A stretch of 64,000 nt of DNA from Chiloscyllium plagiosum (Eukaryota), in the NCBI RefSeq assembly GCF_004010195.1, contig NC_057755.1:8807685-8871684 (forward strand), written 5' to 3'. Shown one piece after another: positions 3,109-57,615 of the stretch. Numbering within the stretch: the stretch's first letter is position 1; every line of letters begins with the position of its first letter. A program made the translations under genes and the position numbers. The notes under the pieces were generated by a model that worked only from the letters and a program-made list of their open reading frames with translations, had not been told where the DNA came from and ran no database searches.

Positions 3109-3398
3109 GTTAACCTGCTCCATTCAGAGAGCCCTGACTGACACACATAAATATGAAAATAGCACTACCACAGTTAGGCGGTAGTATGAAAAAGAAAAAA
3201 ACAGAAAAGAAAAAAAAAATAAACCATCATAGGTTCTGTTCATTCTGAGAGCTGGCTTTAAAAAAACAATAGGAAGATCAGGGGTTCTGTTCACTCTGAC
3301 AGATGGCTGCACGGAAACTGGACAATTGCCATGCCCTATGCACATGCAAATAAAGGATGACTTGATGATGGGTTTCCGGCCTCTGCGGAATTATTTCA
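3109..3398 (+). mobile_element. Solo Gypsy-type LTR with a short Tx1-like 3' end inserted at ~3158-3220
   Basis: gttaacctg..gagccctgactgaca...ggttctgttcactctga...aataaaggatgacttg...ttatttca matches LTR pieces at 23474-23606 and 30600-31210. Confidence 0.6.
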
Positions 3399-3869
3399 AC
3401 TTTGTGTTGGCTTCTGCAAGTGAAGCCCCTACAGCGGCAATGCAAATATACAACTGAAGAAATGTCACATTTTCTAAAAAAAAAGTGAAGGAAGCAATTC
3501 CTGATATTTGCTTTGTTGAGGTAAAAGTTATTTTCAAGCTCTAGGTTTGGGAGCGAGGTTATGCTAAACCATACTGAGATTTTAAAGTCAGGAACAAATG
3601 CTACCGCATTCACTGAGTTTAAGTAATTTATTTTATTTCCTTGGGCAAGGAGTTGACCTGCAACTGAAATCTGAATCGTTTGAAATATCAGTAAGCTTGC
3701 ATCTATACACTTAGCTTCAATAATGAAGAGTAGAACATGGCAAATTCACTTTTCCTCTTGTCTATAGTGATTCATTTCTGTTTAAGAATACACACGACCA
3801 TGATCCAATTGCTGGTATTCATTAAACTGTTTGCTGATATGAAACATCTTACGTTTTATGTTGTTTTCA

Positions 3870-5120
3870 ATCACAGAGTCATGCAGCACAGAAACAGAGC
3901 TGTTGATCTAACTCAGCCATGCCAACCAGGTTTCCCAAACGAAGGTAGACCTATTTCCCTGCATATGGCCAGTTTTCTTCTAAACTTTTATATTCGTGTA
4001 CATGTCTAAATATTTTTTAAATTCATAACTGCACCTGCATCTACCACTTTCCGTGGCAGTTCATTCCACATATGAACCACCCGCTGTGTGAGAAGCCTGA
4101 ACCTCGGGTCTCTTTTAAATCTTTCTCATTTACCCTTTAAAGTTATGGTATCCTATTTTGTGCTCCCTCACCACACAACTTATAGAAAATAAGTTTTGTT
4201 ATTCACCATTCCCTTTCCCTCATGATTGTTTAAAACTCAATAATGTTGCCCCTCAGCCTCCAACGCTGCAGAGAATATAGCCACAGCCTATAAAATCTCA
4301 GTATGGTTTAGCATAACCTCGCTCCCAAACCTAGAGCTTGAAAATAACTTTTACCTCAACAAAGCAAATATCAGGAATTGCTTCCTTCACTTTTTTTTTA
4401 GAAAATGTGACATTTCTTCAGTTGTATATTTGCATTGCCGCTGTAGGGGCTTCACTTGCAGAAACCAACACAAAGTTGAAATAACTCCGCAGAGGCCGGA
4501 AACCCATCATCAAGTCATCCTTTACTGGCATGTACATAGGGCATGGCAATTGTCCAGCTTCCGTGCAGCCATCTGTCAGAGTGAACAGAACCCCTGATCT
4601 TCCTATTGTTTTTTTAAAGCCACCTCTCAGAATGAACAGAACCTATTCAAACTATGTGTATAAATTAGATCATTCAGTTCAATTCAAATCCTCCAGTCTC
4701 CAGTCAAATAATATCGATAGCAGGTGACCAGGACTGCAGAACATATTCCAAAACTGAACTCACCAACGTCCTGTACAATATGAACATGACATCGCAACAC
4801 CTATGTTCAATGCTCTGAGCTGTGAAGCATGCCAAATGCCTTATTTACAGGACTGTCTACTTATGATGCAACTTCCAAACAACTATATACCTGAATCGTG
4901 ATGTCTCTATGTTTGACAGCACTACCCAGGTCCCTTCCATTATCTACTGCCCTTGTTCATCTTAACAAAAATGCTACACCTTGCATTTAGTTAAATTCGG
5001 TTCTATATGCCACTCCTCAGCCAATTGACCGGATTGACCAAGATTCCTTTGTAAGCGGAAATAACCTTCATGTCTGCTTTACCAGCAATGTTGCTGCAAT
5101 CTGCAAACTTACTAACTATT
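3870..5120 (-). mobile_element. CR1/HER1-like LINE 3' fragment, interrupted by an inverted duplication at 4291-4646
   Basis: Reverse complement of the CR1 RT C-terminus/3'UTR seen at 7700-8620 and 25660-26370 (ctgcaaacttactaa, ctaccacttt..tggcagttcattcca). Confidence 0.7.
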
Positions 5121-5626
5121 CCTGAAAGCAATTTCGTCTCTCGGAGGATAGTGAATGTCAGGAATTCACTGCCCAGAATATTTTGAAGTCTAGATCACTG
5201 AAATGATTTGAAGCAGAGATTGATACATTTTTGAAATGTCAAGGAGTTGAGGCCTATGTCGAGCTAAGACAGAGGAAGTGTTGAGACTTGGGCAGATGAA
5301 TCATGATTCTATCGGACAGCCGTCAGGTTACTTCTGCTCCTGTTTCCTATGTTCCTTTATCACATCAGGAATTGGTAAACGTAATGGAACTGTGAGAATT
5401 CGGGATCGGGGAAAATTAACATATGGGAGGGGGAGCTTCAAAAAGAATCAGCAAAATGAACTACATCCAAGTTCGATATTTGAGCTGTTAAAAGAAATTT
5501 GGTTAAGAACAGCAGAGTGCAAAACTCCAAGAAGAAAATATTGAAGACTACGTTCGGAAATTAACCTTTGATGTAGCGAGGGGAAATAGACAAAAGTATG
5601 CAGAAACCAAACAACTGTTGAGTTTT

Positions 5627-14455: not shown

Positions 14456-15150
14456 CACGTTCCTCTGAGGTTTATTGCAAAACAGAACATACCTGAAGAA
14501 TAAATTGTCACTAATTTCTTGAGAATAAGAAATGGATATTTTGGCCATGTGTACTCAAGTACAGAAGTATATGAGTACAGTGAAAAGTGCGCGTTGTCAC
14601 CATTCCCAGCATCACCTTCGGAACAAACGTCCCTCAGTTCAAAATCTTAAGTATAAAATAGAAAAAATAATGTTCAAAGATTAGTTTTGAAATGTTTTTT
14701 CAAAGACAGAACAATATGCTGCAGTTTGCAATAAAGCTATTTTGTACCAGATGTAGCTTTTCCTTCGGTATTGCCTTTAAAATAAACAAAATACTGCGAC
14801 AGGTTTTCCAATGAGTGGAAATCACTCAATGAGTAGTACTCATGCCCTTTTCTTTCTGATGAAAGAATGGAACTCTGCATTTCTGAGAGGAGATTCCATT
14901 TAGCGTTACCGTCATGAATGTGGAACTGTACTTCCAGCCTGACAGATCATTCCTGACTGGAACTGTCTTATAATGCAGAACGTAACTGCATTTGACAGTG
15001 CTGTAAGAGTAAGGTGCCAAATGGTTAATGATGTAGGACTTCAGATTAATCGGGTGCCAGTTGGTTAGATTGTCAAGGTGCCAGCTATGTAGAGTGCTGA
15101 CTTGTGAGGAGTTTGAATGCTGACTAGAATGTGGGTAGTGTAGGGACAGA

Positions 15151-18100
15151 TATAAACAGGAGATTCAGAGTCCACTACGTTTAGGGGACTGAATCTGTAC
15201 TGGCTGGTGATACAGTCAGTATGTTACTGTTAGTTTCTGTTTTCTCCCCTTTTTTGAAGGGGGAAAACCTGATCACTGAACTGGCTGAATTATTTAGCCA
15301 GTTTCTTGACTGGCATTCCTTTTAGTGAGGACTGATTGTTAAACTCCTGATGCACATAAAGTGTTCCAGGTGTAACTCTGTTCTCATTAGGGGATTGTTG
15401 CTTCACTGGCTGGTTACAGCCTGAGTGCTACCCTTTTCTCTTTTTTCTTTTTGAGGAAAAGACAATGTTAATTTTGTGGTAGGGCTTAGCCCTTTGACTC
15501 TAGTTTCTTTTGTTTCTTTTTTTGTTTGTGTCTTCACTTTTTTTGGTGTTTGGACTGAGCCCTTATGGAAGACATATATTTTACCAGAGGAACTGTTCCT
15601 GTGGGGAGGCCTAGCCCTGGGACAGGGCCTCTGAAAATTGAACACCTGTGCGTGTGCTGGGAGGGGAGCACTTGCTGTATCCTGGAGTTTGGGAGAAGAC
15701 CTTTCCTTTGGGAGTGGACCAAACCCCTGTGAGTTAACTGCACCTGTACACTGTACTGTTCCTGTGAGTGGGCCTGGTTTTCAAAGGCTGGGCCAGGACT
15801 CCATGGAGACTGAATACTTGTTTGCTGTGCATTTCCTGCCTTTGCGAGTGGACTCTGCAATTTGGAGTGGACTCCACTTCTGATGATGCATGCTGTCAGC
15901 TGGAGCAGACTCTGTTCCTGAGAATGGACTATGTATTTTTGAAGACTCTGTATCTGGACTCTGTGTGTACCAGAAAGGACTCTGTTTTATTGGCAATTAA
16001 TTGTTTTGTGGTGTTTGTTTAGTCTATCACTTGCATTGGATTAGGTGTCCCTGGGTCTGGCAGGCCTTAACTGTGAGCTGGGAGGCTCATGTGTCGTCCT
16101 GAAAGCTGTCACCCCGAGAGCTGGAAGGTGGGTAGGCCATCCTGTGAACCTGAAGGTTGGTAGGCTGTCCCGAAAGCCGGAGGGTGGGTAGGTAACCCTG
16201 ATGCCAGTCTGACAGCGCTCAGAACAGCCTACACACCTTCTCGCTCTTGCAGCGACTGGCACCGGGGTGGCCTACTCACCCTCCAGCTTTTAGGACAGCC
16301 TCCCAACCTTCAGGTTCACAGGATGGCCTACCCGCCCTCTGGCTCTCACGGTTACAGCTTTCAGGACGATCCATGAGCTTCCCAGCTCACAGTAAGGCCT
16401 GCCAGACCCAGGGACACACAACACAGTGCAGGTGATAACCCTCACAAACCACATTACAGAGTTAATTACCGACAAACAGAGTCCTTTCCGATACATAGAC
16501 AGTTCTCTTTAAAATGCAGAGTCCATTCCCAGGAGCAGAGTCCACTCCAGTATGCAACGTGCATTGTCAGAAATAGAGTTCACTCCAATCTGCAGATTCC
16601 ATTGCTAAAAACAGAGTCCACAACAGAGGGCAGAATCCATTCCCGAAGGTAGCAAATGCACACCCCACAGCACAACAGGTATTCAATCTCCATGGAGTCC
16701 CACGCTGACGCACAGGTACACAGTATATTGTAAAAGTGCAGTTAACTCACAGGGGCTTGATCCACTCCTGAAGGAAAGTTCTTCTCCGAAACTCCAGGAT
16801 ACCGCAAGTGCACACCTCCCAGTGCACACACATGTGTTCAATCTTCAAAGCCCAAGTCCCAGGGCTTGGTCTCCTCACAGGAACAGCTTATCTGGTAAGA
16901 TGTATTTCATCACAAGGGCTCAGTCCATACACCAAAAAACAGTGAAGACACGTACAAAACAAAGAAAACTAAAATCCAAGGGCTAAGCCCTACCACAAAA
17001 TCAACATTTGCCCTTTTTTTTCAAAAGTAAAAGAGAAAAGAGTAACACCAGGCTGCAACCAGCCAGTGAAACAACAATCCGCTAAAGTGAACTGAGTTAA
17101 ACCCGAAACATATCGTGTGTATCAGGAGTTTGGAAATCAGTTTTCACTAAAGGAATACCAGTTAAAAAACTGGCAAAGTAATTCAGTCAGGGCCGGAATC
17201 AGGTTTCCACCCCTGAAAAAAAACAGAAACCAACAGTAACAGTAACACAGTAACTGTGGCCCAGCCAGCAGAGAATCAGTCCCCGAAATTGAGACGACTT
17301 TGAATCTCCTGTTTATATCACTCAGCCAGGGCTTTCCTGATTGTCCCAGGTTAACAGTAACAGACTGACTGTGGTCCAGCCAGCGCAGAGTTAGTCCCCT
17401 AAACTGAGAAGACTCTGAATCTACTGTTTTTTTGACTTTCTGAATCTTCCTTTTTTATTTTATTAAACAATTGCGAAACAGTTTATAAAAAAAAGTTAAC
17501 ATTAACAGCTGTATGCAAAGAGACAGCAATTTTACAAGGGAAAGGAGCAGCAAAGCCAGGCCCCAAACCCTACCGTTCAACTGGTTTACAGGGAGATGAG
17601 GCTGAACCTCAAATTCCAGATTCAAACATTACAAACAGCAACAATCACATTTGTTCATAAAAAGGTAATACAATTACATAAAAGAACAGTGCATACAATA
17701 CAGACCCAGCAATCCCCGTCCCTTCCGGCCACTATAAGGCAGCCTGCCCCTACGTACCTTCCAGCTCTCGGTCCACCCATTCTCCTTCCCAATCTCGGTC
17801 CGCCCTGACACACCTTTCGACCACCTCTAGAACAGCCCGCCCCGGTACCTCTGGGGTGACAGCGCTGAGGACAGCCTACCTGCCTTTCGTCTCTCTGTCT
17901 GCCCCTACGTTCCGTTAGGATATCACCCACCCCGATGCACCATCTGGCCCGTGGACTACCCTGACACACCTTCCGACCACCTCTATGACAGCCGTCACGA
18001 TTCCCCCTTATCGGGACGACAGCGCTCAGAACGGGCTACCCACCATCTGGCTCTCGGGGTGACAGCTTTCAGGAGGACCCATGAGCCTCCCAGATCAAAG

Positions 18101-23470: not shown

Positions 23471-23473
23471 AAA

Positions 23474-25510: not shown

Positions 25511-25659
25511 TTTAAAATTAAATCAATAGTAAGACACAAATTTGGGTCAGATGATGTAGAATCTGTTTGGGTAGAACTGGGCAACCGCGAAGGTAAAGAA
25601 ACTACAGCTTGAGTAATGTCCAGGCGTCAAAACAGTGGTCAGGAGGTGAGGCGCAACAT

Positions 25660-29650: not shown

Positions 29651-30114
29651 CACGGGAAGGCTCACGAGAATGGATCCAGGAATGAAAATCTTACCAGATG
29701 AGGAACGTTTGAGGACTGTGGGTTTATCCTTGATGGAGTTTATAAGGATGAAGAGGCATCTCATTGAAATGTACAGAATATTGAATGGCCTGTTCAGAGT
29801 GTATGTTGGGAAGATGGTTCCATTGGTAGGACACGAGGGTACAGCCTTAGAGTAAAGGGAAGACTTTTTGGAGCAGAGGTAAGGAGAAACTTCTTCAGCC
29901 GGAGCGTGGTGAATCTACGCAATTCGTTGCCACAGAAGGTAGTGGAGGAGGACAGGTCACTGAGTACATTTAAGACGGAGGCACATAGGTTCTTTAGTAT
30001 CAAGTGAACCAAGGGTTCTGGGGAGAAAGCGGGAGAATGAGGTTGAGAAACATATCAGCCATGATTGAATGGTGGGTAGACTCCATTGGCAGATTGGCTT
30101 AATTTATGATCTGG

Positions 30115-41559: not shown

Positions 41560-41850
41560 TTCTCGCAGATACCTTCTCCTACTGCCCCCTTGACCATGAC
41601 CCCACCCCCCACCACCAAACCATCATCTCCCAGACCGTCCATAACCTCATCACCTCGGGGGATCTCCCATCCACCGCCTCCAACCTCATAGTCCCACAAC
41701 CCCGCACCTCCCGCTTCTACCTCCTGCCCAAAATCCACAAACCTGACTGCCCCGGCCCCATTGTCTCATCCGCCTGCTCCTGCCCCACCGAACTCATCTC
41801 CGCATACCTTGACACCGTCCTGCCCCCCTTAGTCCAAGAACCTCCAGCTA
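41560..41850 (+). mobile_element. Penelope-like RT fragment
   Basis: HQTIISQTVHNLITSGDLP..PRTSRFYLLPKIHKPDCPGPIVS.CSCPTELISAYLD. Confidence 0.8.
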
Positions 41851-43090
41851 TCTGCTCTGACAGAGAATGATGAAACAGCTTCCACAGCCAACTTCAAAAC
41901 CCCAACAATTAAAAACTAAGTTAAAATCATGGTTCTATGGGAGCCTGATGCCACTTGTTTCAAGTTTTTTAAAAAAACCCAGGGCCTCACCAGCTGTTTA
42001 CTTTGTTGGTTTTGAAGAGACAACTCGATACTCCTGGCTCAAAACCTCTCTGAATCAAAAAGACAAAATGCACCCCTCAAAGCCATAGCAGCTTCACTTC
42101 TCCCTGAAAAGGATGAATCACAATAAACAAAGATGGCATAACTTAAAAAGATCTTTAGTCGTACACAATTAGTACACTACAATACATATACATTGACTAA
42201 TGCAAATATTCAATATTACAGTCCATTTCTTCCACCACTGAACACCTTTGTTTTCCTTCATGAGAATGTATCGGTAATTCTCCTGCCATGTGTTTAATTT
42301 TCAAATGAAATGACTGGAACAATGAACTTCATCTGAATTATCTAGGTATTTTAACCTTTAAAATTTTCCAAAAATGTTAAGGCGTTTTGATCAATAGAAG
42401 TACAATTGTCCCAGACACATTTATTGACAACATAAATATTGAAATGTTGTGACATCAACATCAAACTCAAGAGCTTCCCAATTGTGGAATATTTCTGTTG
42501 ATGAATATTCAACTTTCTGGAAAAATCTCCAAAAGGTCTTTCGACTTTCTCATTGTCTTCTTGCAAGAGTACTGCACCAGTATCCAAATCCCTCATATCG
42601 ATAGCCACCTTGAATGGCTTTGCCATTTGTAATTAGATGTGGCTAACACTGAGGCTGTCGTTAACACAGCTCTCAGGCTGTCAAATACCTTCTGATGTTC
42701 TACCATCCTCTGAAATTTTCTGCACTTCTTCAACAACTCTGTCAATGGAGTAACGTCACTGCTAAACTTTGGTATGAATTTTTGATTAAAAACCATTCAG
42801 TCCCAGGGATTGTAGCACTTCCCTTTTCATCAATGATATGGGAAACTCCCCAATACTCTCTGTTTTCACATCCCAAGGGGACATTTATCCATGTCCAATG
42901 ATATGGCTTAGGAACGTGACTTGGACTTTTGCAAACTCCCTCTTAACCAGGTTTATCACCAAGCCCGCCTTCTGTATTTGATCAAACAATTTTGATAGAT
43001 GCTCCAAATGTTTCTTCTATGTGTGATTAAAAATCGCCAGACCATCCATGTACACCACACATTTGGGTAATCCCAAAATGACCTTTTTTT
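41850..43090 (-). mobile_element. Gypsy RT/RNase H fragment
   Basis: KFIPKFSSDVTPLTELLKK..LTTASVLA and KPFKVAID..GAVLLQED..FSRKLNIHQQKYSTI. Confidence 0.8.
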
Positions 43091-43245
43091 CTTAGCCTGC
43101 TGGACAAACTTTCCTCATTCCTGAAGAAGGGCTAATGCCCGAAACGTCGATTCTCCTGTTCCCTAGATGCTGCCTGACCTGCTGCGCTTCTCCAGCAACA
43201 CATTTCCATCTCTGATCTCCAGCATCTGCAGACCTCATTTTCTCT
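43090..43245 (+). mobile_element. Penelope terminal repeat
   Basis: cctgaagaagggctaatgcccgaaacgtcgattctcctg..gatgctgcctgacctgctg. Confidence 0.8.
43118..43152 (+). ncRNA. Minimal type I hammerhead-ribozyme-like motif (intact core)
   Basis: CUGAAGA (43121-43127), A, stem II GGGC-UAAU-GCCC, GAAA (43141-43144), CGUC cleavage site with palindromic ACGU stem III. Confidence 0.6.
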
Positions 43246-46200
43246 TCTGTGTTGCTTCTCTCCCTTGTACAATTGCTGCTTCTCTGTATACAACTAATGT
43301 TAATTGTTTTGTAAATTGTGAATGTTTAATAAAATTTTTAGAAAAGGATGAACAGAAAAAAAATGGACAGGAGATTTAGAATCTTCCCAGTTTATGGCAC
43401 TGACTCTGTACTGGCTGATGCTACAGTCAGTATATTATTCTTGCTGTTTTTTATGATTTTTTTTGGGGGGAAACCTGTTTCCTTTACTGGCTGAATTATT
43501 TAGCCAGTTTGTTCTAAACTGCCTGATCCACAGTCAAAGTGTTTCAGGCGTAACTCAGTTCTCATTAGGGAGCTGTTGTTTCACTGGCTGGTTACAGTCT
43601 GTGTGTTACTTCTTTCTCTGTCACTTTGAGAAAAGGACTATGCTGATCTTATGGCAGAGCTTAGCCCGTTGACTCTAGTTTTCTTTGGTTTTTGTATATG
43701 TCTTCACTATTATCGTGTTTGAACTGAGCCCTTGTGAGAAAATACATCTCACCAGATGAGCTGTTTCTTTTTGAAGCCCTGGGACTGGGCCTCTATACAG
43801 ACTGAAAACCTGTGTGTGCGTTCTGGGAGATGAGCACTTGCTGTATCCTGGAGTATGGGAGAAGACCCTGCCTTTAGGAGTGGACCACATCCGTGTGTGT
43901 TAACTGCTCCTTTTAAATGTACTGAGTTCCTGTGTGAGGGCCTGATTGTCCAAGGATGGGCCAGGAATCTTTGGAGACTAAACGCCTGTGTGCTGTGGGG
44001 TGTGCCTTCAGGAGTGCACTCTGCCCTCGGTTGTGTACTCTGTTTTTAGCAATGGACTCTGCAGTTAAGAATGGATGACATTTTTGACAATGCACTTTGT
44101 ACACTGGAGTGAACTCTGTTCCTGGGAACGGGCTCTATATTTTGAAGAGAACAGTTTATAATGGACTCTGCGTATTAGAAAAAACTCTGTTTGTTGGTAA
44201 TTGACTGTCTCCTTGTTTGTTGGCGTTATCACCCACACTATCTTGTGTCCCTGGGTCTGGCAGGCGTTATTGTGAGCTGAGATGCTCATTGCATGCCCTG
44301 AGAGCCGGAGGATAGGTAGGCCATCCTATGAACCTGAAGGTTACTAGACTGTCCTGAAAGCTGTAGGGTGGGTAGGCTACCCGATGTCGGTGGACCTGAG
44401 AACCAGAAGGTGGGTAGACTGTTCTGAGTGCTGTTGTCCCAAGAAGGGGTAATCAGGATGGGCTATCCTAGAGGAGGCCTGAAGGTGGGTCAGAGTGGCC
44501 GAGAGCCACAAGGCGCGTAGGGGCATGCCGAGATCCAGAAGGCTTGTGGGCTGCTGTGCGCTTGTTATCCCAAGGAAGGTGACGGGCTGTCTGAGAGGTG
44601 GTCAGAAGTTGTGTCAGGGCAGTCCACAGGCTGGATGGCGTATTGGGGCGGGTGAAAGCCTGATGGTACTTAGGGGCAGACCGAGAGCCAGAAGTCGGGT
44701 AGGCCGTCCTCAGCACTGTCACCCTGGGTGGGTACTGGGGCGGGCTGTCCCAGAGGTGGCCGGAAGGTGCATAGGGCGGTTTAGGGTAGCTGGAAGGTGG
44801 GTAAGCAGTCCTGACTGCTGTTGTCCAGGCGGGTTTTGGAGAAGCAGGATGGGCTGATCTGGAGGTGGTCAGAAGGTGTGTCAGGGCAGAGCGAGGACTG
44901 GAAGGGGCATGGGATGGACAGAGAGCTGGAAGGTGCACCGGGGCTGGCTGCCTTAGAGTGCCCCAAGTTAGGAGGGGCGGGTGGGGATAATTGCTGGGTT
45001 CCTGAGGGTCTATCTTTTATGTACCATTTTATGTAATTGGACTGTCTTATATACATGTTATTGCTACTGTTTTGTGATGGAAATTGGGATTTGAGGTTTT
45101 TCCTCATTCCCCTCAAAACTGGTTGAACGGTAGCATTTGGGGCTTGGTTTTGCTGCTCGTCTCCCTTGTAAAATTGCTGTTTTCTTTCTATACAGCTGTT
45201 AATGTTAACTTTTTTTTGTAAACTGTGTATTGTTTAATGAAATGAAATGAATAGGAGATTTAGAATCTCCACAGTTTACGGCACTGACTCTGCTGGTTGA
45301 TGCTACTGGTAGCGTGTTCCTGCAGCTATATGTTTCTGCTTATTTTTTAGGGGAAACCTGATTCCTGTACTGTCTGAATTATTTCGCCAGTTTGTTAATT
45401 GCTATTCCGTTTTTAGTGAGGACTGATTCCTAAACTGCCTGGTGCACACAAAGTGCTTCAGGTGTAATTCAGTTCCCATTAGGGGATTGTTGTTTCACCT
45501 GCTGGTTATAGCATGTCTGTTACTCTTTTCTCTTTTACTTTGAGAAAAGGACAATGTTCACTTATTGTGGCAGTGTTTAGCCCGTTGACTCTAGTTTCCT
45601 TTTTTTATATGTATCTTCACTGTTTGTTGGTGTTTGGACTGAGCCCTTGTGAGAAAATATATCTTACCAGATAAGCTGTTCCTGTGGGAAGGCCTAGCCC
45701 TGGGACTGGGCCTCTGTAAAGACTGAACACCAGTGTATGTGTGCTGGAAGGTGAGCACTTGCTCTATCCTGGTGTTTTGAAAAAGACCCTGCCTTTGGGA
45801 GTGGACCAAACCCCAGTGAGTTAACTGCACCTTTACAATGTACTGTGTTCCTGTGAGTGGACCTGGTTCTCCAAAGATGAGCCAGGATTATTTCAAGAGC
45901 TAACAGTTGTGTGCTGTGGGGTGTGCATTTGCTGCCTTCAGGAGTGAACTCGGTTATGGACTCTGTTTTTAGTAGTGGATTCTGCAGTTTGGACTGGACT
46001 CCATTTCTGACAATGTATTTTGTATACTGGAATGGACTCTGTTCCTGGGAATGGACTCCATATTTTGAAGACAAATGTTAATGTAATGGACTCTGTGTAC
46101 CAGAAAGGACTCTATTTGTTGGTAATTGACTGTTTAGTTTGTTGTTTGGTTTTCACCTGCGCTGTCTTGTATCCCTGGGTCTCACAGGCCTTAATGTGAC

Positions 46201-49200
46201 CTTGGAGGCTCATAGGTCGAGCTGAAATCTGTCACTCTGAGAGCCATCCTGTGAACCTGAAGGTTGGTCGGCTGTCCTGAAAGCTGGAGGGTGGGTCGGC
46301 CACCCCGATGCCGGTGCCCCCGAGAACCAGAACGTGGGTAGGCTGTTCTGCGTGCTGTCGTCCCGAGGAGGGGTAATCGGGACGGTCTGTCCTCGTGGTA
46401 GTCGAAAGGTGTGTCAAAGTGGCCGAGAGCCAGAAGGTGCAAAGGGGCAGGCCGAGATCCAGAAAGCTTGTCGGCTGCCCTGCACACTGTCGTCCCAGGG
46501 AAGGGGACGGGCTGTCCAAGACTTGGCCGGAAGTTGTGTCAGGGCATTCCACAGGCCGGATAGTGCCTCAGGATGGGTGAGAGCCTGATAGTACGTAGGG
46601 GCAGACCGAGAGCCAGACGTCAGGTGGCCGTCCTCAGCGTTGTCACCCCAGATGGGTACCAGAGGTGACCGGAAGGTGCGCAGGGCGGTGAGGGAAGCTG
46701 GAAGGTGGGTAGACCGTCCTGAACGCTGTCGTCCTTGGGTGGAGGATAGGGGAAGCAGGACGGGTCGGTAGCTGTGTCAAGGATTTGAGGTTTTCATTTC
46801 CCTGAAAACTGGTTGTACGGTAGGTTTGGGGCTTCGTTTTCTGCTCCAGTCCCTTGTAAAATTGTTGTTTTCTTTGTATACAGCTGTGAATGTTAACTGC
46901 TTTTTGAAAACTGTGTATTGTTTAATAAAATGAACAGGAGATTTAGCATCTCTCCAGTTTAGGGCACTGACTCTGTGCTGGCTGGTCACAGTTAGTGCGT
47001 TACTGCTGCTTTTGGTTTCTACATCTGTTTTGCATGGGAGGGGGTTTGGTGGGGGGTGGGGAGTGGGGTGGGGGGAGTCCTGATTCCTGAACGGGCTGAA
47101 TTATTTAGCCAGTTTGTCAACTGGTTTTCATTTTTTAAATTTATTATTGAGAACTGATTTCTAAACTGACTTATTTACACAGTCAATATATTTCAGGTGC
47201 AATTCAGTTCTCATTAGGGAATTGTTGGTCCACGGGCTGGTTACAGCCTGTGTGTTACTCTTTGTCCTTTTCTCAAAGTGAAAGAATAAAATGTTGGTGT
47301 TGAGCAAGGGCTTAGCCATTGCACTCCAGTTTTCTTTGTTTTTTGTATGTGTTTTCACGGTGTTGGTGTTTGGACTGAGCCCTTGTGAGAAAATATATCT
47401 TACCAAATGAGCTGTTCCTGTGGGAAGGCCTGGCTCTCGGACTGGGCCTCTGTGAAGACTGAACAGATGTGTGTGTGCTGGAAGGTGAGCATTTGCTGCA
47501 TCCTGGAGTTTGGGAGTAGACCCTGCCTTCGGGAGTGAACCAAACCCCTATGAGTTAACTGCATCTTTTCAGTGTTCCTGTGAGTGCGCCAGGTTCTCTA
47601 TGGAGGAGCCAGGGCTCTATGTAGACTGAACGTCTGTGTGCTGTGCGGTGTGCATTTGCTGCCTTCAGGAGTAGACTCTGCCCTCGGTTGTGGACTCTGC
47701 TTTTTTTAGCAACGGATCCTGCAGTTTTGAGTGGACTCCATTTCAAACTAGGCACTTTGTTTACTGGAGTGGACTCTGTTCCTGGGAATGGACTCAACAT
47801 TTTGAAGAAAACTGCATATTTTAATGAACTCTGTATTCGACGGGACCCTATTTGTTGATAATTGACTATCTTGTTGCTTGTTGGGTTTATCACCTGCACT
47901 GTCTTGTGTGTCCCTAGGTCTGGCAGGCCTTACTGTGAGCTGGGAGGCTCAGAAGCCGTCCTGAAAGCTGTCACCCCGAGAGCTGGATGATGGCAGGCCA
48001 TCCTGTGAACCTGAAGGTGGGTAGGCTGTTCCAAAACCTGGAGGGTGGGTAGGCCAGCCCGATGCCAGCCGCCCCAAGAGCCGGAAGGTAGGTAGGCTGT
48101 TCTGAGTGCTGTCATCCTGAGAAGTGGTAATCGGGACAGGCTGTCCGAGAGGGCGGACCTGGAGCTGGACGGGACATGGAGTGGAGCGAGATCTGGAAGG
48201 GATGCAGCGGCAGGCTGCCTTAGAGCGACCAGAAGGTGCGAAGGAAGGTTGGTTTGCTCGGAGTCTATATTGGGTACACTTACATTTTATGTAATAGGAC
48301 TGCGTTTTATGTACTTGTCATTGTTACTGTTTTGTGTGGACTGAAAGTGGGATTTGAGATTTTTCCTCATTTGCCTAAAAACTGGTTGAACGTTAGGGTT
48401 TGAGGCCTGACTTTGCCGCTCCTCTCCCTCGTAAAATTGCTGTTTCTTTGTATACAGCTCTTTGATGTCAATCGTTTTCTAAACTGTATTGTTTAATAAT
48501 GAAATTAACAGGATATTTAGAATCTCCTCAGTTTAGGGCACTGACTCTGAGCTCGCTGGACTACAGTCAGTGTGTCACTGCTGTGGTCCGTTTATGCTTT
48601 TTTTGCGGCAGAAACCGGATTCCTGAATTGGCCGAGCTACGTAGCCAGTTTGTTAACTGGTATTCCTTTTTTCGTGAGGACTGATTTCTAAACTGCCTGA
48701 TCCACATAGTCAATGTGTTTCAGGTGTAATTCACTCCTCATTAGATGACTGTCATTTCACTGGTTGGTTACAGCCTGTGTGTTACTCTTTTCTTTTTCAC
48801 TTTGAGAATAGAACAAGGTTGGATTTTTGTGGCAGGGCTTAGCTCTTGCCCTCTAGTTTTCTTTTTTTTTGTATGTGTCTTCACTGTTTTTTGGTAATTG
48901 GACTGAACACTTTTGAGAGAATACAACTTTCTAGATGAGCTGTTCCTGTGGATAGGCCTGACCTTAAGACCAGGCCTCTGCAAAGACTGAACACCTGTGT
49001 GTGTGCTGCGAGGAGGCCACTTGCTGTATCGTGGAATTCGACCCTGCCTTCAGGAGTAAACCAAACCCCTGTGAATTAACTGCACCTTTACAATGTACTG
49101 TGTTCCTGTGAGTGAGACTGGTTCTCTATGGATCATTCAGGACTCAACGGAGACTGAACACTTGCGTGCTGTGGGTTGTAGGTTTGCTGCTTTGAGGAGT

Positions 49201-52200
49201 GGACTCTGTGCTCAGTTGTGGATTCTGTGTTTAGCAATGGACTCTGCAGTTTGGAGCGGAATCCATTTATGACAATGCACTTATACTAGAGTGTACTCTG
49301 TTCCTGGGAATGGACTCGACATTTTCAAGAGAACTGTTTATTGTAATGAACTCTGTACTAGATGGGACTTTGTTTGTTGATAAATGACTGTCTTGTTGCT
49401 TGTTGGGTTTATCACCTGCACTGTCTTGTGTGTCCCATGGTCTGGCTGGCCTTTGTGTGTGCTGCAATGCTCATAGGTCGTCCTGAAAGCTGTCACCCCG
49501 AGAGCTGGAGTGTGGCTAGGCAGTTCTGCAAACCTGAAGGTGAGCAGTCTGTCCTAAAGCCGAAGGATGGATAAACCATCCAGATGCTGGTCGCTCCATG
49601 ATCCGGAAGGTGTGTAGGGCGTTCTGAGCGCTGTCGTCCACGGGAAGGGGACGAACAGCACTAGAGGTGGCCAGAAGGTGTGTCAGGGCAGTCCACAGGC
49701 TGGACGGCGTGTCAGGGTGGGCAAGAGCCCGATGGTACGTACGGGCAGACCAAGTGTTGGAAAGTGGGGTCGGTTGTCCTTAGCGTTATTACTCTGGGCA
49801 TGTACCGGGGCAGGCTGTCCTACAGGTGGCTGGAAGGTGTGAAGGGCGGTTAGGGAAGCCGGAAGGTGGGTAGGCTGTCCTGACTGCTGTCATCTAGTGG
49901 GTTGGGGAAGCCGGACGGGCTACATAAAGGTGGTCAGAACGTTTGTCTGGGAGTAGCGAGGGCTAGACGGGGCATGAGGCAGACCGAGAGCTGGAAGGTG
50001 GGAGTGGTATGGCGGGCTGTCTTAGTGTGGCCAGAAGGTGGGAGGAGCGGGTGGCTTGCTGGATTGCTGGGGCCTTCCTGTGAACCTGAAGGTGAGCAGA
50101 CTATCCCTAAAGCCAGGGGATGCATATTTTATGCACTGCTTTCTTTGTAATTGGAATGTCTTATGTCCTTGTCATTGTTACTGATTTGTGATTTGAGACT
50201 GGGATTTGAGGTTTGGCCTCCTTTCCCTGAAAACTGTTTGAACGGTAGGGTTTGGATCCTGGCTTTGCTGCTCCTCTCCCTTTTTAAATTGCCCTTTCTC
50301 TGCATGCACCTGTTAATGTTAATTATTTTGTAATCTGTGTATCATTTACTAAAAATTTTAAAAATGAACAAGAGATTTAGAATATTATAAATTTATGGCA
50401 CTTTATCTGTGCTGACTGGGCTACTGTCAGTGTGTTGTTGCTGGAGTTGGATTCTGTTTTTTTTTTGTTGGGGTGAACCTGATTGTTGAACTGGCTGAAT
50501 TATTTAGTCAGTTTGTTATTGGTATTCCTTTCTAAGTGAGGTCAACTTTCCAGATGAGCTGTTCCTGTGATTAGGCCTGGCTTTAGGACTAGGCCTCTGT
50601 GAAGACTGAACACGCTTGTTTTTGCTGGAAGGTGAGCACTTGCTGTATCCTGGAGTTTGGGAATTCACACTGCCTTGGGGAGTGGACCAAACTGCTGTGA
50701 GTTAACTGCGCCTTCATAATGTTCTGTGTTCCTGTGAGTGGGTCTGGTTGTCTTTGAATGAGCCAGGACTCGTTGGACACTGAATATCTGTGTGCTGTGG
50801 GTTGTGCATTTGTTGCCTTCAGGAGTGAACTCTGCCCTCCGTTGTGGACCCTGTTTTTAGAGATAGAATCTGCAGTTTGGAGTGGACTCCATTTCTGACA
50901 AGGTACTTTGTATATTGGAGTGGACTTGATTCCTGGAATGGACTTAACATTTTTAAGAGGACTGTTTATGGTAATGGACTCTGTACCAGAATGGACTCTG
51001 TTTGTTGATAATTGACTGTCTTGTTGCTTGTTGGGGTGGTCACCTGCACTGTCATGTGTCCCTGGTTCGAGCATTTTCCTCTGTGAGCTGGGAGGCTCAT
51101 AGGTCGTCCTGAAAGCTGTCACGGATAGCCATGGTAAGCCATCCTGTGAACCAGAAGGTGTGTAGGCTGCTCTGAGAGCTGGGTTATGGGTACGCCGCCC
51201 CAATGTTAGTCACCCTGAGAACCGGAAGGTACGTAGCCAACTCTGAGTGCTGTCGTCTGAAGAAGGGGTAATCGGGACGGGCTGTCCTAGCGGTGGTCTG
51301 AAGGTTTGTTAGAACGGCATGGAACCAGAGGTGCATCGAGGCAGAATGAGATCAACAAGGCCTCTGGACAGCCCTGTGCGCCGTCGTCCCAGGTAGGGGA
51401 ACAGGCTGTACTAGAGGTGGCAAGAAGTTCTGTCAGGTCTTCCACAGGCCCAGTTGTGCGTCGGGGTGTGAGAGAGCCACATGGTATATAGGGGCAGACC
51501 GAGAGCCGGAAGGTGAATCGGCTGTCATCAACGCTGTCATTCAGTGCAGTTACCGAGGCGGGCTGTCCTAGAGGTGTCTGAGAGCGCAAGAGAACGGCTA
51601 GGGAAGCCAGAAGGTGTGTACACCATCTGATCGCTGTCTTCCTGGAGGAGTGCAAACACGACAGGCTGACTTGAGGTGATCAGGAGGTGTGTCAGGGTGA
51701 ACCGAGAGCCGGAAGGAATATGAGGTGGACTGAAAGCCGGATGAGAGGCAGGGGTGGGCTGCCTTAGAGTGGCCAGAAGGTGGGAGGGACAGGTAGTTAG
51801 CTGAGTTGTCAGTGGTGTCTATGATATATGCACTGTTTTATTGTTCAGTTTGTCGGATTGCCTCTATGTGATAGCGTTTATTGTTGCCTTCTTGATTTGA
51901 TGTATGGTGGGATTCGAGGTTTGTCCTCCTTTTCCTGTGAACTGATTTTGTGGTGGGTTCTGGGGTCCGGCTTTGCTAAACCTTTCCCCTGTAATTTACT
52001 ATTTCTTGTATACAACCGTTAATGTCAAATGTTTGTAATTTGTACTGGTTTATAAGATATATAAATAGGAGGGTAAGAGGTTCTGTTCCTTTTGAGAGCT
52101 GGCTCCGTGAAAACCAGAGCATTGCCAATTCCTTTACATGTGTAAATAAAGGGTGAAGTGATTTGGTGATGGGATAGCGCTCTCTTTGGGGGTACTTCAT

Positions 52201-54014
52201 TTGTGACGACAGTGAGATTAATGGCGTAAGCATGCAAAGCTGCCTACTACCTAATATCCAAGTGGACTTCAACCAGACATTTCAAACGGCTTTCTCATTT
52301 GAAAATGCATCAAGTGAAGCATATCAATTGCAGGATATGCCGACGGACGAGGCCACTTTCAAAAGACCAAATGGACTTGGGGATACCACTTGAGAGAAGG
52401 CAATTCCATCACCACAGGACATATCCTGAGCAGACTCACTCCAGGTCAGCACACACTAAACCCACCGCCTCCGCACAAAAATGTCAAACCTTGGCCAAAC
52501 TGGGAACATTTTATTCAGGATCGAAGCCAGCAAGCCATTGTATTTGCTGCCGGTTTGCGGACTTGTGACAGTGAAAGAGTCCCAGCTGGCCTGTTGTGAG
52601 TAAAAGAACTGATAGACCGGTATCCAGGAGTGTGCACACCCTGGAAATCCCACCTTCAGCTAGCTTGCAAGAGTTAAATTGCTTAGCAACATCCAAGTTA
52701 GAACCAATCAAAACCAACATTTGTTTAAATGGTCACCTGGTTCTAAAGGAAGTCGATACCAGCACCGCTGTATCAGCGATTGCATATCGAATCTTTAACA
52801 AAGTTCGCTCAGGACCCATATTCTTAAGCTTGTGGAAGACTTCAGCTCGACTGAGAAACATATGCGAGGCAACATTTACAGATTAAGTGGACAACTTCGT
52901 TTCCGGTCTTGTGTGAGAAGCAATTGGTTCAGTTTCCACTTGATTTCTCGAATTTCTCGATTAGAAAATAGTGCCTTTTGTTTTCTCAGTTACGGGATGA
53001 GGATGTCACTGCATAACGAGCAGTCCTTCCCAGTGGACAGTAAAGAGTCAACTGCATGTAGGCCTTCCCAAAAGGACATTGTTGGTCCAGACGGGTTTTT
53101 CCAACAATCGAAAACAGACTCCTGGTTATCACAGACTCATGATTGAAAATGTTCATGGAATTCAAATTCTACTATGGCAAGATTTGAAGCTGGGCCCTGG
53201 AACATTACCGGGATCTCGAGGTGAATGTGCTGTGATAACACTTGACTATTGCCTCCACGCTAAAGTGAAGCCCGGGCTTGAGTGAAGACTGAATGAAATA
53301 CACAGAGCTTTTTCAAGAAGGTCGAAAGATTCCCAAAGGAGCCAAGGCCACCTAGCACGTTGACTGGCAAACAATTCCCCGATTCTGAAAGGCCTGTCTG
53401 GTGCTATTTTCCTTTAGTGGAAAGGCAGAGGCAGAAATCAGAATGCTGAAAAGGGAAGGAATCATCAAACTAGTGCAGTTTGCAGAATGGGTCGCACTGG
53501 GAAGAACAATTGTGAAATCTGATTGGTCAGTATGCCATTGTGGGGACTTAAACAAACTGTAAACCAATTCTCATAGCGAGATAAATCCGCAATCCCTCAT
53601 TACAGAGGGCGGCATTTTATTATGGGGTGCAGGAGGGATTGTGCTGAGTAAATGTGTCCACCAGCTACTATTTGAACACCAGCAGGGTCATCCAAGGGTT
53701 TCCAAAATTAAGATGTTGTTGAGACGTTATGTCTGGTGGCCAGGATTGGATCCAGCATAGCCATATTCGTGGAGCAATGCTCAGCATTACAACAATGCTA
53801 AAAATTACCACCTGAACGTTCCTTCCATAGTCATGGAAATGGCTGGGTTAACACTGAACTCAGTTACACGTGAACTATACGGACCTTTCACGAGCTCAAT
53901 GTTCTTGGTTGTTGTGGATACCGGCTCACAGTGGTTAGGGTTCATTCATCAATCTCTGTGATGATTATTGCAAAGCTGTGAGCATGATCTTCAATACACA
54001 GACTTCTCGAATTT

Positions 54015-54575
54015 CTGGATGTAGGTTTATTCGCTGAGCTGGAAGGTTCATTTTCCGACGTTTCATCACCATAATGGGTAACATCTTCAGTGAGCCTCCG
54101 GACAAAGCACTAGCCAGCAGGATACATGAACATCAACTATCCACAAAACGACATGACCCACTGTCACTAGTATCCTTACATACAGATAAGGAAGGGCACC
54201 TCTTCGACTGGGGCAACCATCTTTGGACAAGCCAAACACAGACGCACGAGAATTCCGAGAAACATGGCGTTCCGACCGGAACTCTATCAACAAACACATT
54301 GACTGGACCCCATTTACCAACTCCTGAAAAAAAGAACAGGAAATGTCATCATCATAGTAAATGACTTCACCACAGGAAATGACATCACCAACCCAAAGAA
54401 ACACAAACATATAAATAGAAAGCACGAATCATTTAGCATTGCTTCATCTGGAGGCTCATTGAAGATGTTACCTAGTATGGTGATGAAACGTCTGAAAATG
54501 AATCTCCCAGCTCAGCGAGCAAACCTATATCCAGAACCTTAACCTGAGCTACAAATCTTCTCAAAACTCGCTAAC
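54015..54575 (+). mobile_element. Penelope-like element (second family) with inverted terminal repeat
   Basis: ALASRIHEHQLSTKRHDPLSLVSLHTDKEGHLFDW (GIY-YIG C-terminal part). 54015-54100 is the reverse complement of ~54448-54535. Confidence 0.8.
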
Positions 54576-55541
54576 TCCTGGAAGTGTTTGGGCAAGGTCA
54601 ATGGGATGTCATTTTCCAGCAGAGATTTCTGGTATTTCCTGATGTTGAATGGAATTCAGCATGTTCAGACAGTTCCATACCATCAATCGTCCAATGGTCT
54701 GGCAGAAAGACCAGTCCAAACATTGAAGGCAGGTTTAAAGGCAAAGTCTTCAGTTTCGCTTGATACAAAACTGTCGCAGGTCCTGTTCGATCAGAGGACC
54801 ACTGCTCAGAAAACAACAGGTATAGCCTCCAGCAGAGTTGCTGATGGGGAGGACGATCAACAACAGAGATTTAAATTGATATTCCCGGAACTGGGGTGAG
54901 GGTGAAACAGCATCAGGAACACCAATACCAAACACATGCCGCTTCTAAAGGAGAGAGGCAGTTTACTTCACCGGACGCGGTTAGGTGTTGAAACCACAGA
55001 AAAGTCCCCGCATTGGCACAAGTCGAGGTCAATGCGTAGTCAGGTCCCATGTCTTACAAAGTTTGGGTAAGTGACGCGGTCTTGAACAAAATGTAGATCT
55101 TATGAAAGCTGCTGCTTTGCCATCAGGCAGGAGCAATACAAAACTGTCCCCTCAGAAGCGACAGATAGTCTGTCAGAAACCGTGGCTTCGCACCCTGTGT
55201 CTAGTCCTAAAGGAACCTCCGAGTCTGACATTCATGCAGACTCGATAGCTTTAGAACCTGAAGAGGTGGAAGAAACCGTCTCATGGCACTCTGGGAGCAA
55301 GAGATTGGTTACAGTCCAGTCATGTTACCCTTGTCCGAGTCAGAGTCACAACATCTGGGGTGAAAATATCCCCGGAGAAGCTACAGGAGAAAGAGTAGGC
55401 ATACATCCCCGATCTTGGTGGGGCAGTAAAGTCGTCATTGTAATGAGGGCCAGGAGGATCTCACTGACTATGAGATCATTGACTCAAGGTGAAAGGCCCA
55501 GTCAATCAGTGACCCCTGGCTGACACCGTTCAACTGGAGAT

Positions 55542-55984
55542 GGTCTCTGCTGAGTGCCTGTCCCTCTTCTGCAGTGATGTTCGAGGCCGGGTGTCCTTGG
55601 AGAGGTAGCATGCAATGTCTGCCAATGCTCTTGATGCACTTCGGGAAAGGTTAACACTGCGGGAATAATGTGTTTTATTTCCCCCTGCAACTCCATTTTC
55701 AACTCTTCTTTATCCATCACCTTCACTTTCTTTACACACATAGACCTTTCCCTTATTTGGATTTGCTTGTTAAACGTTGCATGGCCACTTGAGTGTTTAT
55801 CTCGTTGGTGGAACTATACGTTAAAGTTCTTGCTCAATGGTTTCTTATTTGCTGTGTATGTACACAAACAGACACAGACACTTAGACACGGGTGCTTTGG
55901 ACGAAATATCAGCGCCACTGATGTTCATTGTTCGCGTAGGAGATAAATCAAAGAAAACAGAAAAAGGAAACCAAGAAAAAAAAG
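55542..55984 (+). mobile_element. Tx1-like 5'-truncated insert in LTR (paralog of 30655-31086)
   Basis: Tx1 ORF2 C-terminus-like peptide and A-rich tail, flanked by aactggag and gacaggag. Confidence 0.6.
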
Positions 55985-57615
55985 ACAGGAGCGTCTCATC
56001 ACTCTAGCTACTGGCTTCGAGCTGACTGGTTGAATCCCATATACTCTGCGCTTGTAAATAAAGGCTGATTTAGTGAAGGGATACCGGACCCTTAGCAGTT
56101 ATGTCAGTGCTTAGTGACTACATTTTATTTTTATGAATAATAATTTATTGGCAATCTGAACTGGAGTAAAAGAGAACAGGCATTTCTGTGTTGGCAGAAT
56201 GAGTCTGCCGGGGGCCACAAGAGATGAATTGTTTTTAATTGCTTACGTGAGCACAAATTGCCAGGTCTGCTAGTTTGCAGGCATTGGGGCTGGGCCAAAG
56301 TTGATCGCCCGTCCCTAGTTACCTCTTGCAGGTGGCGCAATGTTGCTTTCTGTCCACAGCTGGTAGATTTATCCACAATGCCTTTAAGGAGAGTATTCCA
56401 GGATGTTGACCAAGTGACAGTGAAGGAAGAGAGATATATTTCCCCAGTCTAGATGTTGAGTGACTTGGCGGGTAACGTGCAACGGGTGGTGTTCCCATGC
56501 ATCTGCTGTCCTAGTCTGGATGGAAGTGGTCACGTGTTGGAAGGTACTGCTTCAGATCATCGGTGCATTTCCGCAGTGCATCTTGAGGCTGGTACACACT
56601 GCTGATAATATGCGCTAATGGTGCAGGGGCTGGATGCTTGTGGCTACGGATGCAATTAAGCGGGTTGTTGTGGCCTGAATAGTGTCAAGAATTTTCTATA
56701 TACTTTGTATCAGTGTTCAGTATTTCTTTCGTAGCTAATCTTGCTGCTGACCATTTACGTTCTGGAAGCTGCTCAGATATGGTGAGGTAAATGAACATCC
56801 ACTGTGAGTTGTAATTAATGGACTTGGAAATAAAAAGGAGATAGGAACAATGAAGACAGGAACTGAAACCTAAACTGGCATTTTATAACAGTTGAAACGA
56901 AACAAAATGCGAGGCACACCCAATGAAGAAGGTTCAGGAATGTTGACCATAGGGTAGTTTCAATGATGGATAGTGGGAGACGTTACACAACAATGGGAAC
57001 AACTGGACAAGTTGTTTTCAGGAAGCAAGGCCAGAAACTGTATGCGAATTGTGAAAAAGAGCTTTGAATATTGCATATTCTCATTGCAAGTACGAATAAT
57101 GCCAGTAAAATAAAATTCCAGAGTGACAGCAGTTTGGAAGATTTTATGTTTAATCTTTGCATTTCATTGCCGTCGTATTCAGTCACTGAACATGTTCACA
57201 AGAAGTTGCCACTGACCTTTCAGCGCAAGAATATAAACTTATTAATGACACAAAGCAATGTGTTAAATACATTAGAAATTGGAAAATAATTTCATGTGAA
57301 TCACAAAAGCAAATATTGAGCCCTTTGAACAGCAATAAGTTTTACTCAGTATCAGTAAAACATTATTCGAAATACAATTCGTTAATGTTTCACACAAGGT
57401 ATTATTTCCAGTTTTCGTGACGAAGTGTTTTCCTTCCAATTCTGAGGACATTGACATCTTTTCAGTTAATACTGCCAGGTAAATTCCACAAGGTCTTTCA
57501 ATTTGGAGATCCTGTTGTAAGACTGGAAATACACCTTAAAATACAGGCCAGACACGTATGCTTATTTGCACAGTTTAACAATTCGAGTATATGGATATTT
57601 TACTCCAGTGATTAA

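Follow-up and report, generated by a model that had tools for sequence, protein, structure and literature searches.

Organisation of the locus

The window, i.e. the whole stretch of 64,000 nucleotides of Chiloscyllium plagiosum DNA that was analysed, harbours copies of a short Ty3/Gypsy LTR, A-tailed ends of a Tx1-clade LINE and two long arrays, A and B, composed of copies of a non-coding element designated here as E (Table 1). In agreement with the sequence-only reading, according to which every LTR copy of the window is interrupted at a TATA-like site, the interruption was found in all five U3-side copies (3079-3398, ∼15138-23607, 30550-31206, the LTR ending at ∼52190 and 55448-56101). The segment 4477-4646 was rejected as an independent LTR site, because it belongs to an inverted copy of 3229-3587 with 97.8% identity.

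The inserts at 30655 and 55542 had been described as duplicates consisting of an ORF2 C-terminus, a UTR and an A-tail, which is the case; the flanks aactggag/gacaggag attributed to both, however, are present at the 55542 copy only and not at 30655. Both inserts are carried by a 24-33 kb segmental duplication, and the identical truncation junction occurs at ten places on contig C46. They represent one old insertion copied by segmental duplication, and the number of independent occupied sites in the window is therefore four rather than five. The paralogous 5′ LTRs of the duplicated units are empty in five cases and differently piled in five.

Table 1. Features of the LTR copies and their inserts in the window.
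Feature	Position	Strand	Basis
U3 of type 1 LTR, as far as the TATA-like site	3079..3157	+	BLAST, 77% to natural empty LTR L117
∼60-nt 5′-truncated 3′ end of young Tx1 family (ctacc..ggtag hairpin and A-tail)	3158..3220	+	59/68 aligned bases identical to L022 dispersed Tx1 end
Short LTR-R fragment with its own A-run	3221..3270	+	Sequence; similar fragments in dispersed piles
R-U5 of the LTR whose U3 is 3079..3157	3271..3398	+	BLAST comparison
Recent inverted duplicate of 3229-3587, R-U5 only	4288..4646	-	97.8% identity
Left target copy and TATA-like site in what remains of the 5′ LTR U3 after loss of ∼65 bp	15138..15162	+	Compared with empty 5′ LTRs of paralogs
Array A, with about six complete or partial copies of E	15163..23472	+	Sequence, alignment and tree comparison
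Inverted block (parts of three E copies), 4.6 kb, in array A	16211..20789	-	Breakpoints at E ∼1078/1121 and ∼287/1153
Right target copy and R-U5 of 5′ LTR	23473..23607	+	Sequence; paralogs
Decayed Ty3/Gypsy internal region, later insertions	23608..30533	+	Homology to 52191-55420
3′ LTR U3 (type 2)	30550..30654	+	BLAST comparison
Old 5′-truncated Tx1 3′ end (ORF2 C-terminus, UTR, A-tail)	30655..31086	+	291/387 bases identical to L022 Tx1 3′ end
3′ LTR R-U5	31087..31206	+	BLAST comparison
Array B, with six complete or partial copies of E; foreign 1.7-kb insert at 41565-43246	40753..52058	+	Sequence, alignment
Right target copy and R-U5 of paralogous 5′ LTR	52059..52190	+	BLAST comparison
Decayed Ty3/Gypsy internal region interrupted by several stops and frameshifts	52191..55420	+	Integrase_H2C2 E=4.5e-4, stops read as X
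U3 of paralogous 3′ LTR	55448..55541	+	BLAST comparison
Duplicate of old Tx1 3′ end	55542..55984	+	305/419 bases identical to L022 Tx1 3′ end
R-U5 of paralogous 3′ LTR	55985..56101	+	BLAST comparison

The host LTR

Natural empty copies of the LTR are 210-236 bp long and end in TG..CA, and LTR pairs enclose an internal region both in the window and in its paralogs. The Pfam search of the window Gypsy region yielded one weak match among nine frames. At locus L106, RT_RNaseH (E=8e-4, below the Pfam cut-off) precedes integrase motifs, giving the order RNaseH-then-integrase, and Integrase_H2C2 was detected at L112 (E=2.5e-5, also below the cut-off). Judged by its sequence, with TG..CA repeats around an internal region and the order RT-RNaseH-integrase, the target LTR can be assigned to Ty3/Gypsy. 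In the empty copy L117, CCAAT is located upstream of the TATA-like motif and an initiator-like word 29 nt downstream of it, all of these being consensus matches only.

When 30 sampled LTR copies were scored by eye, 20 were empty; automatic classing of these loci, cruder than reading by eye, gave, among 29, 13 empty, 8 closed piles, 7 open and 1 head-only. The LTR segment had also been considered as a possible integral part of the inserted elements. The inserts are separate from the LTR itself, because most LTRs and the five paralogous 5′ LTRs are empty. E itself contains LTR sequence, namely its head, derived from R, and in some copies a piece of U3.

The Tx1-clade LINE

The ORF of the LINE copy L239 contains endonuclease (Exo_endo_phos, E=1.4e-5) and reverse transcriptase (RVT_1, E=5e-32) domains, and the relative P0002 matches zf-RVT with E=2.4e-4, which is below the cut-off. 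The RT region shares 60% identity with Xenopus YTX2 (Tx1L ORF2; UniRef, P0015) over the whole 501-aa query, while the C-terminus of L022 is 45% identical to it. The LINE can thus be placed in the Tx1 clade, with YTX2 as best named match rather than by a tree placement among clades. At least two Tx1 tail types occur in the genome.

The window inserts share 73-87% nucleotide identity of aligned bases with the L022 3′ end, and the Tx1 similarity anticipated for the insert at 55542 was detected by tblastn of P0002 against 55540-55650 (E=6e-5); YTX2 itself gave no tblastn match when compared directly with the window inserts. By these similarities, the A-tailed window inserts are 5′-truncated copies of the Tx1-clade LINE. 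The short A-tailed 3′ end with a ctacc..ggtag hairpin recognised earlier at 3158-3220 corresponds to a dispersed Tx1 end; its hairpin has a folding z of only -1.8, and the motif has 1239 exact matches in the genome. The LTR-R fragment that follows (3221..3270) is likely either target sequence carried along by 3′ transduction or a very small second insert.

Element E

E is ∼1.9 kb long and non-coding, with 718 tail matches and copies on many contigs. Its copies are A-tailed, variably truncated at the 5′ end and flanked by target duplications, which are exact over 10-18 bp in 15 of 30 copies and form longer tandem matches in 4 more, most of them being 14-18 bp. These sequence features identify E as a dispersed, LINE-mobilised non-autonomous retroposon. 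No ORF common to six E loci was found, and tblastn of E against Tx1 ORF2 gave nothing better than E=0.23. A blastn search of E against 20 long Tx1 loci detected no common tail, the only matches being two adjacent E fragments. The view of E as an internally deleted Tx1 was rejected, there being no similarity to Tx1.

A ribozyme or small-RNA (tRNA, 7SL, 5S, U1/U2) head was likewise dismissed, as neither the window nor eight E loci gave such an Rfam match; the sole Rfam match in these sequences is one miRNA, attributable to chance. A head of the SINE/SINEU type was rejected as well, since the head of E matches LTR R. Folding of the E leader is strong, with a median z of -3.5 compared with -0.4 in empty LTR R-U5. 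A conserved leader structure was rejected: the alignment of 46 of 66 heads revealed just a 10-bp hairpin with no compensatory change, and this hairpin is the palindromic marker that had served to collect the heads. No E transcription start was found in the RNA of three runs, one of them without reads; this RNA may come from a related species, and A-tailed reads at the E end are indistinguishable from genomic A-tails or host transcripts.

Arrays A and B

Both arrays had been read as satellites beginning at the LTR site and handing back to the LTR. The beginning is as described in array A, which starts with gacagatataaacaggag at 15145, but not in array B, where a deletion that removes the TATA junction joins the flank to approximately position 38 of the first unit (40753). 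The return to LTR R was seen in both, at ∼23474 (A) and ∼52061 (B). Unrelated sequence has been inserted into both arrays, and three copies of array A contain the succession head, U3 piece and head (17306-17416, 19042-19144, 21553-21680).

The satellite interpretation was not sustained. All 17 pile copies find their best match in a dispersed copy (0.84-0.89), the mean within-array identity being 0.81 in A and 0.80 in B, and a locally homogenised satellite was rejected on this ground. As E copies are dispersed and land repeatedly at the site, each “satellite array” is a pile of such copies, inserted one after another, and kb-scale “satellites” of this kind should be annotated as insertion piles. 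The piles did not show the expected young-to-old gradient at a significant level (12/18, p=0.12).

The best explanation of the window arrays is that they are old insertion piles which arose independently in each duplicated unit, within the 5′ LTR of the Gypsy element there. The inverted block of array A, for which twin priming may be the origin, has a near-contiguous right breakpoint but lacks a visible target duplication at its left one.

Preference for the TATA-like site

The insertion site common to Tx1 and E is TATAAACAGGAG in the short Gypsy LTR. An LTR was detected within 1.2-1.4 kb of 20/30 Tx1 tails, of 18/30 E tails and of none of 27 control flanks, the tail samples being the first 30 matches, from contigs C1-C2, with neighbours from one pile included; 10 Tx1 and 12 E tails had no LTR detected nearby. 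Exact AMCAGGAG lies 12-42 nt downstream of 265 of the 1239 Tx1 tails. The 3′ flanks are therefore far from random. Kojima (2015, PMC4494074) takes more than 20% of flanks as the criterion for a target preference, and Tx1 lies above it with both the nearby LTR and the exact motif.

Tx1 and E have one position, one orientation and the right-hand end of the duplication in common, and their tails are interleaved within piles. Eight E copies reside at unrelated A/T-rich sites, with duplications, and off-target Tx1 copies also exist. The targeting is a preference for the LTR site. The suggestion that the TATA-like site of a Gypsy LTR is the target of both a Tx1 family and its non-autonomous partner is supported by the flanks, the clade assignment and the empty LTRs. 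A vertebrate Tx1 endonuclease thereby gains a short, well-sampled natural target with hundreds of junctions, which is useful for work on site-directed LINE insertion.

Target sequence within E and its proposed origin

The first ∼70 nt of E derive from LTR R, the head matching the R regions of five type-2 LTRs with 72-84% identity, and 59 of 70 E 5′ ends are complete to the target motif. A head joined to a U3 piece with CCAAT-TATA was found at 16 junctions, one of them (L269) within a duplication-flanked insert at an unrelated site; the U3 piece is present in duplication-flanked inserts also at L081 and L158. AAACAGG precedes the poly(A) in 9 of 30 E tails, three of which are off target.

A variant U3 word is followed by the E head in 16 of its 19 matches, the common word in none of 30 (p=3e-10); the variant is never found in an empty LTR and occurs behind both U3 types (5 and 7 cases). 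Among loci not chosen by U3, the variant was present in 8 of 22 LTRs with an E 5′ end vs none of 15 without (p=0.012), the common U3 being kept in the other 14. A strict direct-junction test was not significant (2/7 vs 4/26, p=0.58). In the type-1 LTRs L070, L085, L285, L287, L289 and L293, which contain full E, comparison by eye showed E's own bases where truncated inserts duplicate those of the target.

[quoted passage not shown] With neither a 3′ tail nor coding similarity in common with E, Tx1 is named as the probable mobiliser solely because of the common site. Each insertion would re-create the site, so that piles could grow. The target duplication would restore the TATA on the left, and the E head would supply an initiator-like motif at about the spacing of the LTR (29 nt in L117). 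E would then be transcribed from the LTR promoter, and the RNAs of multi-head or tandem copies would begin upstream of the site, so that the cDNA end could anneal to the target. Such annealing would lead to uniform full-length 5′ junctions and might sometimes overwrite the last ∼30 bp of the host U3. Taken together, LTR-promoter co-transcription with R2-like homologous 5′ joining is, on this analysis, the likely mechanism of E.

More tentatively, and with somewhat less than even confidence, E may be regarded as a promoter-regenerating LTR parasite, made from the part of its target that is transcribed and with a portable, target-derived CCAAT-TATA core in its repeated heads. On landing, it would replace the host promoter by its own variant, convert hundreds of solo LTRs into promoters of E and re-create the landing site for itself and Tx1. 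Target promoter sequence in moved E copies bears on how promoter-less Tx1 passengers are transcribed, a question raised by Kojima (2015, PMC4494074).

With the same targeting, E could instead possess an internal promoter left over from LTR R that it had captured, in which case the uniform 5′ ends would be RNA starts and the U3 variant an LTR subfamily or the result of later gene conversion. A fixed RNA start would suit the uniform 5′ ends, and the strongly folded leader, the common U3 retained by most E-bearing LTRs and the outcome of the direct-junction test also fit. We nevertheless consider this unlikely, given that the U3 piece has moved within the duplication-flanked inserts L269, L081 and L158, that the variant is never empty and stands behind both U3 types, and that E tails carry target sequence.

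Still less probable is that some other LINE, either L1-like or from a second Tx1 family, moves E and has a TA/AAA preference that overlaps the TATA-like site by convergence. The lack of a tail shared with the Tx1 copies compared, the eight off-target E copies at A/T-rich sites and the plurality of Tx1 tail types would agree with this, but E matches Tx1 in position, orientation and right-hand duplication end, the two interleave in piles, and Tx1 has off-target copies too.

It is very improbable that the window arrays arose chiefly through tandem amplification in place (unequal crossing-over or multi-unit read-through retrotransposition) of one or two founders. All B copies do fall on one side of a branch (82/88), along with 10 dispersed copies, and two A copies are sisters (93/84), in a poorly resolved tree (5/46 branches well supported) whose dispersed set was chosen for its similarity to one window copy; the geometry of the inversion in array A might stem from a multi-unit RNA, and exact tandem repeats of truncated inserts exist elsewhere (L125/126, L149/150). 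Yet within-array identity is below that to the best dispersed match, A copies belong to different subfamilies across a 100/99 branch, and A-tails and target copies lie between units.

Comparison with known elements

Crocodilian Tx1 families that prefer LTR retrotransposons and have non-autonomous partners, Tx1-8_Crp and Tx1-4_AMi, were described (Kojima 2015, PMC4494074). The main text of that paper gives no position within the LTR element, whereas the shark site is a TATA-like motif in a short Gypsy LTR. Xenopus Tx1L likewise has another transposon as target; this target, Tx1D, is a DNA transposon of the piggyBac type, in contrast to the LTR promoter in the shark (PMC4494074). Among titles and the first lines of abstracts, outside Repbase, Dfam and subscription journals, no report was found of E or of a shark Tx1 with the TATA box of an LTR as its target. 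As far as the main text of PMC4494074 goes, the principle of a Tx1 homing on another transposon, with passengers, is already published; new is a passenger that begins with a piece of its target, and one that likely borrows and carries the target's promoter.

The closest passengers are SINEU-1/2/3, which, like E, are non-autonomous and have a transposon target in common with a Tx1 element, Tx1-Mar; SINEU-1 also has no tail in common with its partner, tandem SINEU copies sandwich a target duplication, and transcription from the flanking target was proposed (PMC4494074). SINEU elements are mostly <500 bp, with U1/U2 heads and, according to the same text, no promoter-like sequence; E, on the other hand, is 1.9 kb long, with a target-LTR head and, in some copies, a CCAAT-TATA piece of the target.

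In the case of R2, annealing of upstream 28S sequence in the RNA with the target was proposed (Eickbush et al. 2013, PMC3774820), leading to uniform 5′ junctions, propagated junction variants and sometimes tandem duplications of upstream target. E would resemble R2 in the target sequence of its RNA and in the proposed homologous 5′ joining; R2 is autonomous, inserts into rDNA and has an HDV-like ribozyme (PMC3774820), whereas no Rfam ribozyme was found in E. SVA is, by description alone, similar to E in being a ∼2-kb composite, non-coding retroposon moved by a LINE; it is driven by L1 and not described as site-specific in PMC4494074, according to which one SVA subfamily uses an upstream host promoter.

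Insertion of Tx1 at a Gypsy LTR

The targeting of a short Gypsy LTR at one TATA-like site is a real and well supported observation. All five U3-side LTR copies in the window are broken at this site, as the sequence-only reading had stated. The three short A-tailed inserts, which it had tentatively assigned to a Tx1-clade LINE (Tx1), match the dispersed Tx1 3' end with 73-87% of aligned bases identical, and the named relatives of the LINE fragments come from one shark and one ray. A long genomic Tx1 copy harbours endonuclease and reverse transcriptase (RT) domains; its RT region shares 60% identity with Xenopus Tx1 ORF2, and the Tx1 C-terminus 45%.

The hairpin word of the young Tx1 tail has 1239 exact matches in the genome, 265 of them with an exact AMCAGGAG 12-42 nt 3' of the word. 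The suspected enrichment of LTR flanks was borne out: among the first 30 loci an LTR lies near 20 tails, compared with 0/27 control flanks, and AMCAGGAG with one mismatch allowed follows 18/30 tails versus 4/27 controls. Three tails are clearly off target. The inserts are no part of the LTR itself: by eye, 20 of 30 sampled LTRs are empty, and in the other ten the inserts are truncated at varying points, with the site duplicated. The common U3 word is carried by 573 LTRs in the genome, and natural empty LTRs are 210-236 bp long, with TG..CA ends.

E, a dispersed retroposon and probable passenger

The two window arrays consist of E, a ~1.9-kb non-coding retroposon in which neither a shared ORF nor similarity to Tx1 was found. 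Near-full copies are spread over many contigs, exact E words occur 718 (tail) and 179 (5' word) times in the genome, and truncated copies bear A-tails and target duplications. An LTR lies near 18 of 30 E tails, and eight copies are at unrelated A/T-rich sites. The arrays had been taken for satellites; this is ruled out, since all 17 pile copies tested have a dispersed E copy as their best match. One contribution of the window is to show that both arrays are piles of insertions. Array A contains a mixture of E subfamilies (in a tree that is weak overall), and E and Tx1 tails are interspersed within piles across the genome. The young-to-old gradient tested along piles was not significant.

Occupied and empty LTRs in duplicated units

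The window belongs to contig C46 of a 3.56-Gb genome. By self-BLAST it contains roughly three old copies of a unit of 24-33 kb (67-78% identity), each with a decayed Gypsy element whose internal region gave one weak integrase match in nine frames; in better-preserved copies elsewhere in the genome RNaseH precedes integrase. In one element the 5' LTR holds array A and the 3' LTR holds the 30655 insert, and the next unit has the same layout, with array B and the 55542 insert. The start junction of the 30655/55542 fragment is identical at ten places on C46, hence the fragment represents one ancestral event. The paralogous 5' LTRs, an empty-versus-filled series added by the window, are a natural control: five are empty and five, both window arrays counted, are filled with differing piles, so that the piles were built separately, after duplication. 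The TATA junction is gone in array B, and ~65 bp of U3 are missing in array A.

Features of the window and related loci (window positions unless indicated)
Position	Feature	Remark
3158-3220; 30655-31086; 55542-55984	Tx1 inserts	5'-truncated, A-tailed
15163-23472	Array A	E pile
40753-52058	Array B	E pile
16211-20789	Inversion in array A	One breakpoint near-contiguous in E (1121|1153), the pattern expected from twin priming of a multi-unit RNA; opposite breakpoint shows no target duplication
3221-3270	Short LTR-R fragment	Own A-tail
3229-3587 / 4288-4646	359-bp inverted duplication	97.8% identity, far younger than its surroundings
25654-26372 / 36957-37675	720-bp repeat	88.5% identity
59793-60848	Tandem pair, ~530 bp	82% identity
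G000:C46 8.58-8.93 Mb and 10.75-10.98 Mb	Old duplication cluster, at least 10 units of 24-33 kb	Decayed Gypsy element in each unit
L193 1531-2100 (oriented)	Non-coding A-tailed insert	Same site; 3' end E-like but diverged

Target-derived sequence in E

The first ~70 nt of E (the head) share 72-84% identity with the R region of type-2 LTRs, one of two LTR types. Among 70 E copies reaching position ~115, 59 are complete to the target motif, five begin near an initiator-like word and six are headless. At 16 loci, two of them in the window, the head is followed by the CCAAT-TATA stretch of the target LTR (U3 piece) and, in most, by a second head; at one of the 16 (L269) the U3 piece lies within an insert that is bounded by duplications and sits at an unrelated site. 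In nine of 30 E tails, three of them off target, AAACAGG immediately precedes the poly(A); this suggests that their source copies were polyadenylated within the target.

Multi-head copies carry a diagnostic variant in the U3 piece. Its exact word has 19 matches, followed by an E head in 16, by Tx1 fragments in three and by an empty site in none; the common U3 word precedes an E head in 0/30. Of these 19 matches, 12 are within host LTRs and nine of those immediately precede E; both U3 types occur upstream. At loci chosen independently of U3, the variant base occurs in 8/22 LTRs with an E 5' end versus 0/15 without; a strict junction-only test was not significant. By eye, six E copies of full length in type-1 LTRs have E's bases at the positions at which truncated inserts duplicate those of the target. 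The window adds moderate evidence that the core promoter of the target LTR travels with the passenger and is written in by it.

Proposed mechanism

A common site, duplications, truncated copies, piles and ends derived from the target are established. In the proposed mechanism the Tx1 endonuclease would nick at the TATA-like site, E would be mobilised in trans and transcribed from the LTR core promoter, and at the 5' end the cDNA would pair with the target. An RNA starting ~29 nt past the TATA would lack the first part of the head. Since most E copies retain that part, the source RNAs probably start further upstream, in another head or a neighbour, which matches the R2 model of RNAs retaining upstream 28S sequence (PMC3774820). 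The E RNA start was sought in RNA data and none was obtained; the E leader folds well, and no covariation was seen in it.

According to Kojima 2015 (PMC4494074), crocodilian Tx1 families prefer LTR retrotransposons, and SINEU passengers form tandem insertions for which flank-driven transcription was proposed. A search of the literature found no description of this putatively shark-type system.

Further variants

Long Tx1 copies elsewhere in the genome (L231, L246, L249, L041, L047, L048, L051, L054, L032) start with a piece of the family's 3' UTR, joined to a head similar to the R region of type-1 LTRs; the whole R stretch lies upstream of the LINE 5' UTR in L054 and L032. The front of Tx1, too, seems to include sequence derived from the target. 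At other loci (L064, L084, L155, L186, L268/L300) an E variant has ~80 nt of type-1 R ahead of a shortened head, with the R/E break near the same word as in the Tx1 head, possibly reflecting the capture of a second head or a template switch.

Short fragments of LTR R or of the E head that have A-tails of their own are also found within piles at L103, L134, L170, L194, L271 and L277, and may be read as 3' transductions or as copies of short promoter-proximal RNAs. The L193 insert, found also downstream in L067, may represent another passenger family. Sequencing runs of four organisms contain words of a young E copy, with shares up to 0.52, so the E family may extend across several related species.
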